From a phage, in NCBI GenBank assembly GCA_024614665.1, contig GCA_024614665.1_4861.1: a DNA stretch of 64,000 bases, one strand, 5' to 3'. Below the pieces are notes generated by a model that was given only the letters and a program-made list of their open reading frames with translations, had not been told where the DNA came from and searched no databases. The translations under genes and the position numbers were made by a program. Shown in pieces: positions 11,126 to 27,559 of this stretch (the first letter of the stretch is position 1; each line of letters begins with the position of its first letter).

Positions 11126-11164
11126 TGAGCATCCCAGTAATAATACCAAAAGAATTATTCACGT

Positions 11165-11179
11165 AGATAATATCTATCT
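11165..11179 (-). promoter_or_regulatory. promoter-like 15-bp element, type A (plus strand AGATAATATCTATCT)
   Basis: Exact 15-mer shared by 5 sites; about 40 nt upstream of ATG 11125. Confidence 0.5.
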
Positions 11180-14916: not shown

Positions 14917-16479
14917 ATGAATAGTAAAATGATGTTGATAACCGCCTTAGCCGCACTGTATACAGAATCTATGCTGACGGACCCTAGCAAGGATCATGAT
15001 GTCATAAGAAAAGTTCTGATGCAGATCAAGCTTCCGGAATATGCGGAAGATGGCGAAGAGCGCTTTGCACTCATCGAGATCAAGGACATTATCACATCTA
15101 TCATAGACGGCGGCATGGAATACGACCACGCGAGCGTTATGAAGCGCTTGAAGCTGGCCACCACTCAAGTACGTCCTCTATACGATACGATTACCAAATT
15201 CCTCGAAGACGATTTGCCCGAGGAAGAAGACAAACGTACCGAGCATCTTAATCGACAACTGTCTCAATATTATTTCCAATTACGTCAATGTTTACAGAGC
15301 GTCGAACTCAAAACAAAAATGGGTCGCGCGTTCGGAGCATTGAATGGAACTGAGACACGTGTTGATCTGAACACCGCAGTGCTCGAACTCAAAGAGGCGC
15401 TATCTACGTTCGGTGAACGCTCTCATAATAAGATTCCATCACTGGTCGGTGAGCTGGTTACAGATAATCGGGCTCCGTTTGTTAAAGTGTTCGACTCGAT
15501 TAACAAGAAAGCAGCAGGTAATGGTTTGCAGACGGGCTGGAAAGCCATTAACCAAATGCTCGGTTGTAACAAAGGGATTACCGAAGAACTGTGGCTAATG
15601 CCGGCGTTACCTTTTAACTGTAAGTCTTTGTTCAGTCTCTTGCTGAGCTTATCGATTCCTATCTTCAACACGCCTGAGAAAGTAATGGCGGATGTGAAGG
15701 GCACACTGCAACCAATTATTCTTGACTTGAGTTTAGAAAACGAACTCGACGTTAACTTAGCTTACGGCTATCAAGCTCTGTACGGTCATTTTGAAGGACA
15801 AGTTCCACAGATGACCATTTCACAGGATGCAACCGCTGAAGAGAAGTTAGCACACACAACAGCAATGTCTGATTACCTCTGTGGTAAGATTCGCGCAAAC
15901 GGTTGGGACTACGTTTTCCAAAAGCACACCAACTCCGATTTTAAAGTGCACTACATCAACGACCTTATTCTCGACTTACGTCGTCGCGGTTATCATGTTG
16001 TTGGCATTCGCGCAGACTACTTAGGCACAATCAGCAAAGCAGGACACGGCAACGGTATTGCCGGGAGTGATATCAAAGAAATTTATCGTATTGCTCGTAA
16101 CATTCAAGTGGTGCGCAACCGTGGGTTCTTAATTGCCCCACACCAGATTTCCCCAGAAGGTAAGCGCTTAAAAGCGTTAGACCCGGTAGGTTTCTGTAAG
16201 AACTTACCTGGTCGTGGTCTTTACGATAGTTGTTCGAGCCTTGATAACGAGGCCGATGGTGAAATGTATTTTAACAAGCGTGTGGTCAACGGCCATAGCT
16301 TCTTAGAAGTTCAACGCGGTAAGCACCGCACCATTATCGATACTAAAGAATCTTATCACTACACAGTGATACCTTTCCAGGATGTTGGCATCCTGCCTTG
16401 GGATTGTGATAAAGAAGAAACCGTAACAGCGTCGTCTATCAACTTCTTCACCGGTGGAATGGGTGATGATTTGTTCTAA
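14917..16479 (+). CDS. hypothetical protein (520 aa)
   Basis: Long ORF with AAGGA RBS; minus strand over the same span has only short ORFs. Confidence 0.6.
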   Translation: MNSKMMLITALAALYTESMLTDPSKDHDVIRKVLMQIKLPEYAEDGEERFALIEIKDIITSIIDGGMEYDHASVMKRLKLATTQVRPLYDTITKFLEDDLPEEEDKRTEHLNRQLSQYYFQLRQCLQSVELKTKMGRAFGALNGTETRVDLNTAVLELKEALSTFGERSHNKIPSLVGELVTDNRAPFVKVFDSINKKAAGNGLQTGWKAINQMLGCNKGITEELWLMPALPFNCKSLFSLLLSLSIPIFNTPEKVMADVKGTLQPIILDLSLENELDVNLAYGYQALYGHFEGQVPQMTISQDATAEEKLAHTTAMSDYLCGKIRANGWDYVFQKHTNSDFKVHYINDLILDLRRRGYHVVGIRADYLGTISKAGHGNGIAGSDIKEIYRIARNIQVVRNRGFLIAPHQISPEGKRLKALDPVGFCKNLPGRGLYDSCSSLDNEADGEMYFNKRVVNGHSFLEVQRGKHRTIIDTKESYHYTVIPFQDVGILPWDCDKEETVTASSINFFTGGMGDDLF

Positions 16480-16506: not shown

Positions 16507-16536
16507 ACGGGCAGTTTATGCGTCCTGCCAAGATCA

Positions 16537-16599
16537 AAAAAAAAATACGACGAACTATTTATATGCATGGAATTACCCGAGTGTTCCAGCACTCGGGTA
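16537..16599 (-). terminator. hairpin plus distal U-tract after small gene (terminator candidate)
   Basis: Stem tacccgagtg/cactcgggta (16574-16599), then plus-strand A10 run (16537-16546). Confidence 0.35.
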
Positions 16600-16613
16600 A
16601 GAGTTATTTCATG

Positions 16614-16760
16614 TTAACTTTTGTTTAGTAGTATTTCACCTCCTAAACCCTTGATACGACGAACAGTGTTCTGCTTGGGCGCAGTCAACTGTTGTACACG
16701 TTGGTTGAATTGGGTTTGCTTAACGTAATAGTTAAGTATTTGCGAACGTAGTTGTTCCAT
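16614..16760 (-). CDS. small protein, 48 aa (tandem paralogue 1: MEQLRSQILNYYVKQTQFNQRVQQLTAPKQNTVRRIKGLGGEILLNKS)
   Basis: ATG preceded by AAGGAGG; ungapped similarity to neighbouring 48-aa ORF including C-terminal IKGLGG(D/E)I motif. Confidence 0.45.
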   Translation of the reverse strand: MEQLRSQILNYYVKQTQFNQRVQQLTAPKQNTVRRIKGLGGEILLNKS

Positions 16761-16872
16761 GTAGTGCCTCCTTAGGCAGGTTGTTAATATATCGCTGCGC
16801 TGTGGTGGTACACAATGCACCGATATACTGTCACGGGAGTTAAAAGGGGTGCTCGAACACCCCTGGTTAGTG

Positions 16873-17019
16873 TTACTTCTTATTGAAGATGATGTCACCT
16901 CCTAGTCCTTTAATGGTACGGGTGGAAGTCTGCGGTTGGCGGGTAACCTCTTGCAGACGTTGTTGAAAAGCGACATGTTTCAGCTGTTGCTGACGCAGTT
17001 GTTGCATAAAGGTATTCAT
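16873..17019 (-). CDS. small protein, 48 aa (tandem paralogue 2: MNTFMQQLRQQQLKHVAFQQRLQEVTRQPQTSTRTIKGLGGDIIFNKK)
   Basis: ATG with AGAGG RBS; paralogue of 16614..16760; below ORF-track length cut-off. Confidence 0.45.
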   Translation of the reverse strand: MNTFMQQLRQQQLKHVAFQQRLQEVTRQPQTSTRTIKGLGGDIIFNKK

Positions 17020-17045
17020 GTTAACCTCTAAGTGGATGTGAATAA

Positions 17046-17085
17046 GCTCTCTCCTTCGGGAGAGAGCGCCTTTTATTTTCTTTTC
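17046..17085 (+). terminator. intrinsic terminator (plus orientation)
   Basis: Stem gctctctcc/ggagagagc with TTCG loop followed by ttttattttcttttc. Confidence 0.55.
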
Positions 17086-17126
17086 GGAAAATAAATATAA
17101 AACCCTCTTACCCGAAGGTAAGAGGG
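17086..17126 (-). terminator. intrinsic terminator (minus orientation)
   Basis: Stem ccctcttacc/ggtaagaggg with CGAA loop, U/A-rich tract in minus sense; follows stop of gene 17133..17993. Confidence 0.55.
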
Positions 17127-17132
17127 ATACTA

Positions 17133-17993
17133 CTACGGTTTATAATCAACTTCGTTGATCTTACCGCAAGCCGGACAAGCAATGTTCATTGTCTGCGAAG
17201 TGTAGCGATGTGTTCTCGGTACCGTTGCGACATGATTGCGGTTACAGCCGGAACACGTCCAACCGACCACTGGTGCCTTCGATTGTTTCGGGGCAGGAGT
17301 GTCTTCTTTTAACAATGCGACTACCGCGTGAAATTTACGAAGTTCTGCGTTAACATGCGCTTCCCAGTCGGCGTCCAAACGCGCCGTGAACCAACGTTGA
17401 ATCTTCTGGCCAAGGCCGTCTTGATTTTCTTCTTCATGGGACATCACAAACTTGAGATTTGCGCGACCCCACTGCACAACGTTCTCTACTTTAATCCCGT
17501 CTACGGTGTCGCTGATTGGCGTATAGTTAAAAGTTGGATAGGTGAGATAACAAGCTTCAGCTGTTGCAAAGACCGTATTGCCTTCAAACAGCGCCATGGC
17601 CTCATCGCCCTTAGCATCCTTCTGTGCGGCTTCCAATCGTGGGCAATGGAAACCTTCAAGTTGCTGGATTTTGGTCGTTAGCGCATTGATACCCTGCAGC
17701 ACAGCGATACGCTTTTTGCTGTCTGTAATGGTTGCCATTACCTTGCACAACGCGCGCGAGATAGCGCTATACATTGACGTTTTGCGGTTTTCATCGAGGA
17801 AACGCTCTTGCTGCTCCAGGTCGTAAGAAGACAGGCCGTAGCTCTGCCCTTCGACCAACACGACGTAAGTACGACGTTTGTCGCGGTCCAGCTGGACAAT
17901 GGCCGCATCGGTTAACGGATCGCTAGCCAATACTTCGTGGTCGGGAGGTAGGGGGAAATCTGAACTTTTGATGAAATCAGTAATGCTGTACAT
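17133..17993 (-). CDS. hypothetical protein (286 aa) with C-terminal CxxC...CxxC zinc-ribbon
   Basis: ORF track; C-terminus WTCSGCNRNH...ACPACGKINEVDYKP. Confidence 0.55.
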   Translation of the reverse strand: MYSITDFIKSSDFPLPPDHEVLASDPLTDAAIVQLDRDKRRTYVVLVEGQSYGLSSYDLEQQERFLDENRKTSMYSAISRALCKVMATITDSKKRIAVLQGINALTTKIQQLEGFHCPRLEAAQKDAKGDEAMALFEGNTVFATAEACYLTYPTFNYTPISDTVDGIKVENVVQWGRANLKFVMSHEEENQDGLGQKIQRWFTARLDADWEAHVNAELRKFHAVVALLKEDTPAPKQSKAPVVGWTCSGCNRNHVATVPRTHRYTSQTMNIACPACGKINEVDYKP

Positions 17994-18984: not shown

Positions 18985-19041
18985 GGCAATACTCCTTTAG
19001 ATTAATAGTCGATTGAGTTGATAGATTGTCTTCTATCACCT

Positions 19042-19056
19042 AGGTAATATATATCT
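19042..19056 (-). promoter_or_regulatory. promoter-like 15-bp element, type B (plus strand AGGTAATATATATCT; within 26-bp exact repeat 19036-19061)
   Basis: 26-mer identical to 27539-27564; 13/15 match to type A on the coding strand; 58 nt upstream of ATG 18984. Confidence 0.5.
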
Positions 19057-27496: not shown

Positions 27497-27544
27497 ATTC
27501 CTTAAGTGATAGTCGGTTAAAAGATTACCAATGCAATCTCACCT

Positions 27545-27559
27545 AGGTAATATATATCT
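27545..27559 (-). promoter_or_regulatory. promoter-like 15-bp element, type B (within 26-bp exact repeat 27539-27564)
   Basis: Identical 26-mer to 19036-19061; sits between an upstream terminator and ATG 27496. Confidence 0.5.

Follow-up and report, generated by a model that had tools for sequence, protein, structure and literature searches.

Tandem duplication of a hairpin-bounded accessory cassette encoding a 48-residue basic protein in the Salmonella jumbo phage SPN3US

The window analyzed here, a stretch of 64,000 nucleotides of phage DNA taken at its full length, matches the Salmonella jumbo phage SPN3US at 99.8% identity. Two minus-strand ORFs of 48 codons are present between positions 16,614 and 17,019, as a preliminary description of the letters alone had proposed, and both are already in RefSeq NC_027402, each as a 48-aa hypothetical protein. 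The genes, referred to below as copy A and copy B, and the elements around them are listed in the direction of their transcription.

17103..17126, minus strand: terminator hairpin of 10 bp with a T-run at 17088-17102, ending the upstream gp66-gp70 operon
17068..17102, no strand assigned: AT-rich palindromic spacer TTTATTTTC..GAAAATAAA between two back-to-back terminators, conserved in sequence across genera
17046..17067, plus strand: GC-rich hairpin with a plus-strand T-run, its stem covarying between genera, just upstream of the copy A leader TTATTCACAT
17025..17029, minus strand: weak Shine-Dalgarno (SD) sequence of copy A, AGAGG, 5 nt before the ATG (ribosome-binding site (RBS) duplex -7.0 kcal/mol)
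16873..17019, minus strand: copy A, gp71, YP_009153365; 48 aa, pI 11.6, net charge +6
16895..16904, minus strand: internal SD-like TAGGAGGTGA in copy A, codons L39-G40-G41-D42 (-15.9 kcal/mol against the 16S tail)
16842..16863, minus strand: terminator-like hairpin of copy A, GGGGTG-TTCGAG-CACCCC followed by TTTT, with the GTG..CAC top of the family's 3' hairpin
16788..16827, minus strand: imperfect hairpin with 17-nt arms before copy B, more stable in its minus-strand form and followed by TTAACAAC and the SD
16767..16774, minus strand: strong SD of copy B, UAAGGAGG / TAAGGAGG (RBS duplex -12.0 kcal/mol)
16614..16760, minus strand: copy B, gp72, YP_009153366; 48 aa, pI 10.6, net charge +6
16636..16645, minus strand: internal SD-like TAGGAGGTGA in copy B, codons L39-G40-G41-E42 (-16.1 kcal/mol, the strongest in the window)
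16573..16600, no strand assigned: hairpin common to the converging small gene and helicase units, with an invariant GUG..CAC top

Copy A reads MNTFMQQLRQQQLKHVAFQQRLQEVTRQPQTSTRTIKGLGGDIIFNKK and copy B reads MEQLRSQILNYYVKQTQFNQRVQQLTAPKQNTVRRIKGLGGEILLNKS. Aligned without gaps the two are identical at 19 of 48 positions (40%), and BLASTP aligns them at 47% identity with one gap; the E-value of 1e-12 places this likeness far above chance. The description of equal-length paralogues alignable without gaps at about 40% identity is thus borne out, and the shared IKGLGG core and the wider RxIKGLGG[D/E]I[I/L]xNK motif are as it gave them. Each protein contains 12 glutamines and asparagines in total.

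Both proteins match the profile of PHROG 18219 from end to end (residues 1-48 of 48 positions; E 1.2e-27 for copy A and 6.8e-27 for copy B), which is their own family and one that carries no functional information. Its members are 47-49 aa long, free of cysteine and very basic (pI 10.4-12). Homologues in Seoulvirus, Machinavirus and Wellingtonvirus keep the length, the start and the motif at 35-50% identity, and their indels consist of whole codons. The ratio pN/pS lies between 0.12 and 0.57 in all 16 informative pairs, and against orthologues it is 0.29-0.41 for copy A and 0.28-0.43 for copy B. No conserved alternative or antisense reading frame was found in the homologues; antisense ORFs encoding SPPxPL peptides are not conserved, and neither is a downstream mini-ORF, ATG-AAA-TAA, after the copy B stop, in P16 or SPAsTU. 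The purifying selection, the start, length and motif conserved in three genera and the membership of one PHROG establish gp71 and gp72 as real genes, as the preliminary description had supposed. Judged by these sequence comparisons, they are protein-coding members of a lineage-restricted family: an exhaustive profile search over 1.84 billion representatives returned only three 50%-identity clusters, all of SPN3US-like phages, together with two low-complexity Gln-rich matches at E ~1e-4, and within IMG/VR the family occurs only in SPN3US and Huxley.

The profile searches that had been recommended as a check recovered the family itself and gave no function. Neither protein, nor any of the 32 family members scanned, has a significant match in Pfam; NCBIfam gave no match, and PADLOC defence-system profiles hit no family at E up to 10 when three divergent members were used. 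A sequence-profile search of the PDB gave no significant match, and Foldseek searches of PDB and BFVD with the predicted fold returned zero matches. A literature search gave no paper that mentions SPN3US gp71 or gp72, their accessions or PHROG 18219. Sequence, profile and fold searches therefore give no function for PHROG 18219. With GRAVY values of -0.69 to -1.16 the family proteins are hydrophilic as well as basic, which contradicts a type I toxin of the hydrophobic membrane-peptide kind.

For both copies AlphaFold2 predicts an amphipathic helix, a linker and a β-hairpin. The helix spans residues 3-26 in copy A and 2-26 in copy B (pLDDT about 89 in the latter), and the hairpin pairs residues 35-38 with 41-44 in A and 34-38 with 41-45 in B (pLDDT about 56 in the latter); at pLDDT values of about 56-59 across the two models, the hairpin is weakly supported. 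The KOW-motif β-hairpin of NusG, Spt5 and ribosomal protein uL24 carries KGxxGx[VI]. K37-G38-x-x-G41-x-I43 fits the second half of the KOW consensus, and the predicted tight hairpin has its glycines at the turn; the family nevertheless has neither the SH3-like barrel nor the first half of the consensus, and the KOW profile (Pfam PF00467) matched none of the 32 members at E up to 10. The helix sequence QFNQRVQ resembles QFNLRMQ of Escherichia coli uL29, and weak uL29 signals were obtained (one uL29 chain only at E 0.3 in the PDB profile search; Pfam PF00831 at E 0.042 in 1 of 32 members). The C-terminal half of the family, however, carries a helix-breaking GLGG where uL29 is helical, and homology or mimicry was rejected at an hhalign probability of 1.8% over 13 columns. 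A match to the C-terminus of Gaussia luciferase (KIKGAGGD, E 1.2 in the PDB profile search) was taken as chance. Likenesses to the GroES mobile loop or its 'GDIVIFN' strand, the SSB tail, a Pup-like GGE, clamp-binding motifs, double-glycine leaders and the arbitrium peptide were dropped on simple features, since the motif is not C-terminal and there is neither a signal peptide nor a Q-x-x-L-x-x-F sequence.

The hairpins that had been said to bracket the genes are present, with eight terminator-like sites in 1 kb where 1.0 is expected. A strong SD had been claimed for each gene; this applies to copy B (-12.0 kcal/mol) and fails for copy A, whose AGAGG reaches only -7.0. G-U pairs make the hairpin at 17103..17126 more stable on the minus strand. 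That at 17046..17067 reads as a plus-strand terminator, since its T-run follows on the plus strand, and the plus-strand form is the more stable in most homologues tested. The spacer between them may also hold the copy A promoter. No sigma-70-type promoter was found, and a motif like the SPN3US early promoter is absent before either gene. The imperfect hairpin before copy B is the counterpart of the one upstream of copy A. In a consensus fold of the hairpin at 16573..16600, 7 of 10 pairs show covariation. A scan of Rfam 15 gave only sub-threshold hairpin look-alikes, at most 26.8 bits against gathering scores of 37-245. The conserved double-terminator layout provides landmarks for transcription units in SPN3US-like nucleus-forming phages.

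The site of the small gene is fixed: in Seoulvirus, Machinavirus and Wellingtonvirus it always lies between a gp70-like gene and a convergent gene for a DnaB-like helicase. Copy A occupies the position of the single gene in the other genera, right after the conserved upstream module. The gene is missing at this junction in phiEaH2, CR5 and pVa-21, whose helicases are 87%, 68% and 38% identical to that of SPN3US, and a tblastn search of all phage records gave no match anywhere in these three phages. The phiEaH2 spacer is made up of only the two ends of the SPN3US spacer, which meet at their T-runs. Two copies are present in six distinct phages and one copy in at least 17 Seoulvirus records. The gene is thus an optional, hairpin-bounded accessory cassette that is dispensable at the level of lineages and occurs in zero, one or two copies. 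These properties fit in part the effector-type role, in host takeover or anti-defence, that had been suggested for such tandem small genes.

Within SPN3US the starts of A and B are 259 bp apart. Their leaders match, with a hairpin and TTAACAAC at B corresponding to a hairpin and TTATTCAC at A, and the terminator of A has the same invariant GTG-N6-CAC top as the 3' hairpin of the family; this shows that the duplication took in the whole 259-bp cassette. We conclude that the pair evidently represents a tandem duplication of leader hairpin, ORF and 3' hairpin together; the duplication had been recognized correctly from the two genes, and it extends to the entire cassette, with repeated collapse to a hybrid single gene. 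Copy A has diverged in the N-terminal helix and copy B in the C-terminal tail. Copy B retains the ancestral 3' flank. Its nearest relatives are the single genes carried by SPAsTU-like phages (69-77% identity to P0012, P0016 and P0017, compared with 40% to A). The gene of phage 1252 follows A up to TAGGAGGTGA and is then identical to the SPN3US B tail and 3' flank; SEGD1 has the same hybrid layout with a different B-type tail. Most Seoulvirus relatives carry one hybrid gene, A in its head and B in its tail, formed by deletion or recombination across the shared TAGGAGGTGA. For the single-copy relatives, the TAGGAGGTGA of A marks the upstream deletion junction and that of B the downstream one.

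This shared 10-mer is also an unusually strong complement of the 16S rRNA tail. Its two occurrences rank first and second among all anti-SD complements on both strands of the 64-kb window. They outrank every real ribosome-binding site in those 64 kb. In all 13 homologues compared, pairing of the internal site to the 16S tail yields a duplex of -15.0 to -17.1 kcal/mol, compared with -5.6 to -12.0 for the real ribosome-binding sites of these genes. The sequence encodes the invariant LGG[DE], written with rare codons in every homologue read as DNA: L39 is CTA or TTA in 19 of 20 (the phage uses the two together at 19%), G40 is GGA or GGG in 20 of 20 (usage 21%), A and G both pairing with the anti-SD U, and G41 is GGT in 19 of 20. 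Elsewhere along these genes, all six leucine codons occur at L8 and all four glycine codons at G38. The preliminary description had passed over this spelling of the invariant GLGG[DE] as a perfect SD.

Random synonymous recoding of G-L-G-G-D/E reaches -15 kcal/mol or better in 8-16% of cases, so the estimated significance of ~1e-4 to 1e-5 depends on the assumption that some five deep lineages are independent. The 3' end contains further rare codons (AUA, AGA and CGA), so that the pattern could in part reflect a general clustering of rare codons. RNA folding predicts the motif to be paired with codons 15-18 in copy A and to lie in a loop in copy B; a consensus fold gave no common local structure around the motif, the region being unpaired, and no sequence complementary to the internal SD was found within the window. 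We consider the chances about even that this 8-9-nt anti-SD complement, which precedes the stop by seven codons, has a function at the level of the RNA.

If it does, the selected product might be mainly RNA, with the mRNA acting as a 30S decoy or tether, or with a plus-strand antisense RNA extending from the conserved TATG (16562-16565) as far as the plus-strand terminator (17046-17067), and LGG[DE] would be a by-product of the 9-mer. Synonymous sites are constrained exactly at the 9-mer, the strongest anti-SD complements of the window, and the alternation of D and E is the outcome expected of a free third base in GAN. The antisense form is favored by the hairpin upstream of A, with its plus-strand T-run, and by the downstream hairpin, which is more stable on the plus strand; a plus-strand TATG lies beside the latter in 13 of 13 sequences whose aligned flank reaches it, and the late-promoter core of phiKZ is T-3ATG+1 (PMC7598289). 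TATG is, however, merely a 4-mer, and the A/G polymorphism suits a sense RNA pairing with the U of 16S, whereas an antisense anti-SD mimic would lose its match. Against both forms, purifying selection extends over the whole ORF and not the motif alone, and the start codon, the SD, the length, K37, I43, K47, Q20 and R21 are kept while codons vary. Titrating tens of thousands of ribosomes would presumably also need an implausibly abundant RNA. An RNA as the main product is thus unlikely. The same low likelihood is given to a dual-coded cassette with a conserved RNA core, whose perfect 9-nt anti-SD complement, far exceeding the gene's own RBS in strength and retained in three genera, would program ribosome tethering or pausing, or 30S capture, on a hairpin-capped mRNA exported from the phage nucleus, LGG[D/E] being partly its shadow. 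If real, such a dual-coded element would be a new way for jumbo phages to control translation in cis or to manipulate ribosomes.

A small basic component of the virion or capsid interior, either a DNA-condensing or a cementing peptide, is quite unlikely. The gene lies ~0.7 kb from the major head gene cluster and its product is very basic. Prohead proteases of the phiKZ type cleave at S/A/G-X-E, a motif that G-G-E fits, and trimming at this point would be possible, although half of the homologues have D instead of E at that position. Neither protein is named in the text of the SPN3US head-proteome and essential-gene papers searched, although a protein of 5.6 kDa could escape gel-based mass spectrometry. 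The major capsid protein of phiEaH2 is 88% identical to that of SPN3US (PMC5105663), yet phiEaH2 has no small gene.

The neighboring DnaB-like replicative helicase is very unlikely to have the small protein as its loader, regulator or accessory subunit. The two genes adjoin in every genome that has the small gene, across three genera, but they converge with hairpins between them and are consequently not co-transcribed, and phiEaH2, CR5 and pVa-21 retain orthologous helicases, at the identities given above, with the small gene missing at that site.

Several features would suit a leader or arrest peptide that regulates a gene in cis through its own translation: the ORF is tiny, conservation is highest near the C-terminus of its product, an internal SD and rare codons lie shortly ahead of the stop, and hairpins follow. 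Single-copy phages, however, have no downstream gene on the same strand, only the terminator region and the converging helicase. Transcription in nucleus-forming phages is thought to occur inside the phage nucleus, apart from translation; this separation would make attenuation-type control unlikely, and a cis-acting leader is highly improbable overall.

A larger downstream product, either the 94-aa ORF at 16614..16898 that begins at a GTG in the A motif, raised earlier as the possible expressed product, or an A-B fusion made by +1 frameshifting at the internal SD, is scarcely credible as a conserved product: the frame is open in SPN3US, SPLA3 and SPLA5c, but MET_P1_082_240 has an in-frame stop in the spacer, the 94-aa extension crosses a terminator hairpin, copy B has its own strong SD and ATG, and single-copy phages have no downstream partner. 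Strong SD-like sequences stimulate programmed frameshifting in prfB and dnaX, and a stimulator of this type is present here, but the motif is followed by no conserved slippery heptamer or shift site; products of the other frames differ in every homologue, the +1-frame product is interrupted in MET_P1_082_240 and the -1 frame meets UGA at once, and a programmed frameshift site was rejected for want of the shift site and a conserved trans-frame product. A peptide of the 94-aa ORF or the fusion spanning the spacer would include ...SSIRSNTNQGCSSTPFNSR...

The explanation that we slightly favor as a whole is that of a duplicated accessory cassette to which dosage, a binding effector and an RNA-level element are added as inferred parts. 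In its established part, gp71 and gp72 each occupy their own hairpin-punctuated mini-cistron, and the optional cassette has a single fixed site, flanked by the early gp66-gp70 operon and the convergent DnaB-like helicase gene, in SPN3US-like nucleus-forming jumbo phages. Duplication of the cassette was followed by divergence of A and B and, in most Seoulvirus, by collapse across TAGGAGGTGA to a gene with an A head and a B tail. Because the hybrids are maintained, the two copies probably do the same job, with copy number (0, 1 or 2) a variable of dosage or adaptation, as in a small gene accordion. More tentatively, the product may be a small effector that works by stoichiometric binding: its amphipathic helix of 25 residues, which has a heptad pattern, could serve self-association or docking, and the invariant KGLGG[DE]I[ILV][FL]xK hairpin could be a contact motif. 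Given the pI of 10.4-12, its target would most likely be a nucleic acid or an acidic protein surface, of host or phage. For the internal SD, the leading ideas are that ribosomes might be tethered or slowed near the end of the ORF, or that a bound 30S subunit might protect or tune the short mRNA. As they stand, these are ordinary genes, annotated hypothetical small genes of a well-known phage in a catalogued family; the accordion pattern makes the gene worth knocking out in the SPN3US genetic system.

Three known systems bear comparison with the cassette and its embedded element. Internal SD-like elements with a function include the stimulators of +1 frameshifting in prfB and -1 frameshifting in dnaX and the STAB-SD mRNA stabilizer of Bacillus cryIIIA. 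Like these, the SPN3US element is an anti-SD complement of unusual strength that does not serve as a normal ribosome-binding site and is conserved although genes generally avoid such sequences in their interior. It differs in that no slippery or shift site accompanies it and no product of another frame is conserved, and in that it lies near the 3' end of the ORF rather than in a 5' leader. The pausing of elongating ribosomes by SD-like sequences is disputed, and the embedded SD offers a compact, easily recoded test case for the role of internal sequences of this kind.

As a unit, the cassette resembles the morons of lambdoid and HK97-type phages, extra genes that bring their own punctuation and stand between conserved ones: it is bounded by terminators and bordered by T-runs, and genomes that are otherwise syntenic either have it or lack it at one fixed site. 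Morons, in contrast, were defined in temperate phages and have their own promoter active in the lysogen, whereas SPN3US is a virulent jumbo phage. In copy number, the cassette is comparable to the gene accordion of poxviruses, in which a gene such as K3L expands and collapses in copy number during host adaptation. In both, a small accessory gene is tandemly amplified, its copies diverge, and they collapse to one copy carrying changes of both. The phage case differs in that neither a selective agent nor a third copy is in evidence, and in that the collapse runs through a 10-nt microhomology inside the ORF, so that the survivor is chimaeric. The 0/1/2 copy states and the hybrid survivors suggest that the two copies are interchangeable and the gene an adaptive accessory factor. 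With its states 0, 1 and 2 and its hybrids joined at a 10-nt microhomology, the cassette would be a clean phage case of a naturally occurring small-gene accordion.

The 801 bases around copies A and B match Salmonella phage SPN3US, a phiKZ-like jumbo phage (Seoulvirus, 240 kb), at 99.8% identity (window position x is NC_027402 position 84470 - x, reverse complement). Both small ORFs are already present in the RefSeq entry as 48-aa hypothetical proteins; the numbers gp71 (copy A) and gp72 (copy B) were assigned by gene order. The pair is flanked by gp70, which is an essential, non-virion protein (PMC5105663), and by a convergent helicase gene, shortly beyond which lies the major head protein gene. 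The same module surrounds the small gene in every genome that has it.

Features of the small-gene region (window positions; elements 1-7 in the order of the small-gene, minus strand)
17133..17993, minus: gp70, one flank of the pair
17103-17126: element 1, terminator hairpin and T-run, ends the upstream operon
Element 2: AT-rich palindromic spacer, sequence kept between genera
17046-17067: element 3, second GC hairpin, stem covaries
Element 4: short conserved leader TTAxTCACAT and a weak Shine-Dalgarno (SD) sequence
16873..17019 (copy A) and 16614..16760 (copy B), minus: element 5, small ORF
16573-16600: element 6, hairpin; in the consensus fold 7 of 10 pairs covary and the top is an invariant GUG..CAC
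Element 7: T-run, then the hairpins located after the helicase gene
14917..16479, plus: DnaB-like helicase gene, other flank of the pair

The two ORFs and their translations agree with a preliminary description of this region, and its view of them as paralogues holds, with 19 of 48 residues identical in a gap-free alignment (BLASTP E = 1e-12 for the pair). The surroundings are hairpin-rich, as it had also claimed (8 terminator-like sites per kb vs 1.0 expected), but of the strong SD sequences ascribed to each gene only that of copy B (UAAGGAGG) stands, copy A having AGAGG. Both copies match PHROG 18219 over its full length (E about 1e-27), pN/pS is 0.12-0.57 in all informative pairs (Nei-Gojobori counts), homologues differ in length by whole codons, and no other open frame on either strand is kept across the family. 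Together with the conserved homologues, these results establish copies A and B as genuine genes. A 94-aa ORF (16614..16898, minus), which starts at a GTG within copy A and had been named as the product that might be expressed instead, is open in SPN3US, SPLA3 and SPLA5c; it is interrupted by an in-frame stop in MET_P1_082_240 and runs across the copy A terminator hairpin, and as a conserved product it was rejected and ranked below the two small proteins.

The family has homologues of 47-49 aa, at 35-50% identity, among Erwinia and Salmonella phages of three genera (Seoulvirus, Machinavirus and Wellingtonvirus) as well as on metagenomic contigs; in IMG/VR its sole carriers are SPN3US and Huxley. 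A family HMM from 32 members was run against 1.84 billion representatives with word filters off, and returned just three 50%-identity clusters, every one from these phages. Two extra matches (E about 1e-4) were low-complexity Gln-rich sequences, and a likeness to ribosomal protein uL29 (helix QFNQRVQ vs QFNLRMQ) was rejected at 1.8% probability in profile comparison. M1, Q20, R21, G38, G41 and I43 are invariant in the family, and K37, L39, G40 and K47 almost so. Every member is a strongly basic (pI 10.4-12.0, net charge +4 to +9), hydrophilic protein without Cys or Trp. AlphaFold2, run on two alignments headed by copy A and copy B respectively, gave identical topology: a predicted N-terminal helix reaching residue 26 (pLDDT 83-90), a Pro-containing linker and a C-terminal hairpin with two glycines at the turn (pLDDT only 56-59). 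Helix hydrophobics at positions 1, 4, 8, 18, 22 and 25 of the alignment form a heptad-like a/d pattern, so the helix could self-associate or dock on a partner.

The small gene is optional. In several phages the gp70-like gene leads directly to the helicase, 62-110 nt apart, at the same junction.

Phages with no small gene at the junction (positions in each locus)
phiEaH2, Erwinia phage, L026 3166-3277: helicase 87% identical
CR5, Cronobacter phage, L027 3142-3205: helicase 68% identical
pVa-21, Vibrio phage, L028 3046-3114: helicase 38% identical

In phiEaH2 the spacer joins the two outer parts of the SPN3US spacer precisely: the first terminator hairpin with its T-run is followed directly by the T-run and elements from the helicase side, an arrangement that places the cassette borders within T-runs. 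An A10 run at 16536-16545 (T10 on the small-gene strand), 27 nt past the downstream hairpin, coincides with one border in this comparison and is kept as T8-T11 in all homologous loci. Since these three phages retain orthologous helicase and capsid genes, absence of the cassette argues against a core role with either and for an accessory function; a helicase accessory and a virion peptide are both ranked lower as explanations.

Hairpins were assigned to strands by folding each on both, G-U on one strand being a C-A mismatch on the other. The first (17103-17126) folds more stably on the small-gene strand, as expected if it terminates the upstream operon. The second (17046-17067) has its more stable fold on the helicase strand in most homologues tested and is followed there by a T-run; it is best read as a plus-strand terminator stopping transcription from the helicase side, which would imply some antisense transcription across the small gene. 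The downstream hairpin region shows the same preference for the helicase strand in 12 of 16 cases. The segment 17046-17126 presents two opposite-polarity terminators back to back around a common AT-rich palindromic spacer, and as a whole scores as an inverted repeat with 37-nt arms. Conservation of the spacer (TTATTTATTTTC..AAAGAAAATAAAAG) between genera exceeds the need of T-runs alone; the spacer may therefore double as a promoter or protein-binding site. The phiKZ late-promoter consensus has TATG as its core, and this tetranucleotide stands beside the downstream hairpin (16562-16565, plus) in 13/13 sequences whose aligned flank reaches that far. A second conserved TTATG (16517-16520, plus) sits in a small hairpin (GGCAG..CTGCC), within its loop, and an antisense plus-strand RNA across the small genes could begin at either site. 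A 21-nt motif, AGATATATATTACCTAGGTGA, heads the gp66-gp70 operon, which lies upstream of the cassette; it occurs three times in the window (two exact, one with 3 mismatches) vs 0 expected, and before neither small gene.

Sites of AGATATATATTACCTAGGTGA, before gene blocks
19036-19056, minus
27539-27559, minus
11159-11179, minus

This motif looks like the AT-rich early-promoter class reported in phiKZ-like phages (PMC7598289). It ends in CTAGGTGA, a partial complement of the 16S tail.

The pair arose by duplication of this self-contained cassette. The starts of A and B are 259 bp apart, the copy A terminator and the family 3' hairpin have a common invariant GTG-N6-CAC top, and the hairpin and TTAACAAC leader before copy B mirror those of copy A; the duplicated unit is therefore the whole cassette. 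Copy B shares 69-77% identity with the single genes of SPAsTU-like phages (P0012, P0016, P0017) vs 40% with copy A, and A/B synonymous sites are close to saturation (pS 0.76), so either the duplication is old or B has been exchanged since. Two copies occur in six distinct phages (SPN3US, Proteus phage 7, SPLA1a, SPLA3, SPLA5c and MET_P1_082_240) and one in at least 17 Seoulvirus records, where the single genes are hybrids with an A head and a B tail. Phage 1252 follows A as far as TAGGAGGTGA and then has the SPN3US B tail (EILLNKS) and 3' flank, identical; SEGD1 follows A to the same point and continues with a different B-type tail, EIILNKR. Judged from these junctions, the hybrids are the expected result of a 259-bp deletion between two identical 10-mers, by which the pair collapses at an embedded microhomology. 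Because such chimaeras are kept under purifying selection, A and B are probably equivalent in function, and copy number appears to behave as a small gene accordion. An 11-nt sequence at the copy A start, GTTAACATGAA (17015-17025, minus), is repeated exactly across the copy B stop (16608-16618), which yields ATG-AAA-TAA. The expected number of such repeats in 700 nt is about 0.06. As the mini-ORF is not kept in either P16 or SPAsTU, the repeat is probably chance or a relic. Several SPFM records (LR535901-LR535921) match the region in 7-12 short pieces, with small ORFs truncated or frame-broken into 65-68-aa 'hypothetical proteins', which looks like assembly or sequencing error rather than biology.

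The junction 10-mer (16895..16904 in A, 16636..16645 in B) encodes L39-G40-G41-[D/E]42 and is itself a perfect SD sequence, AGGAGGUGA being the complement of the 16S tail UCACCUCCU. Across 13 homologues that represent every lineage, its duplex with the 16S 3' tail reaches -15.0 to -17.1 kcal/mol, vs -5.6 to -12.0 kcal/mol at their true ribosome-binding sites and never stronger than -9.6 kcal/mol elsewhere in the same ORFs. The two internal SDs rank 1 and 2 among such sites on both strands of the 64-kb window, where the two copies alone match the 10-mer with at most one mismatch. Leu39 is CTA or TTA in 19/20 sequences (together 19% of phage Leu usage), Gly40 is GGA or GGG in 20/20 (vs 21% usage), A and G at its third base each pairing with the anti-SD U, and Gly41 is GGT in 19/20, whereas the same genes use all six Leu codons at Leu8 and all four Gly codons at Gly38. 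By this codon evidence the internal SD is preserved through codon choice; position 42 often alternates between D and E, as expected for the free third base of GAN. Since 8-16% of random synonymous recodings of GLGG[D/E] reach -15 kcal/mol, the combined estimate of significance, roughly 1e-4 to 1e-5, depends on about five deep lineages being independent and is not phylogeny-corrected. Rare enterobacterial codons also cluster at the 3' ends of both genes and their homologues (codons 43-48), independently of the SD-like motif: I43 is AUA in 13/20, and the last Arg is AGA, CGA or CGG where internal Arg is CGT or CGC. Predicted local RNA structure at the internal SD differs between A and B, and in the consensus fold this site is unpaired.

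Neither a slippery site nor a conserved trans-frame product accompanies the internal SD, which rules out a prfB- or dnaX-type frameshift signal, and no downstream ORF could use it. It may be an RNA element under selection, tethering or slowing ribosomes close to the ORF end; alternatively it would bind 30S subunits, so tuning or protecting the short mRNA. Readings of the locus as an RNA-first element or a leader peptide rank below that of a protein effector. The small basic protein would be a stoichiometric binding effector, its helix serving for docking or oligomerisation and its invariant hairpin as the contact, with nucleic acid or an acidic surface as target and dosage set by copy number. 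The preliminary description, which had likened the pair to host-takeover or anti-defence factors or small regulatory subunits, is confirmed in its observation and supported in part in its interpretation. A and B are real, paralogous, accessory genes for small basic proteins. Set against known systems, they are already annotated, their family is catalogued and their kind, an accessory small-ORF cassette, makes the novelty modest; as far as our searches show, the literature searched holds no earlier description of the conserved internal SD and the accordion-like hybrids, both of which are cheaply testable in the existing SPN3US genetic system.
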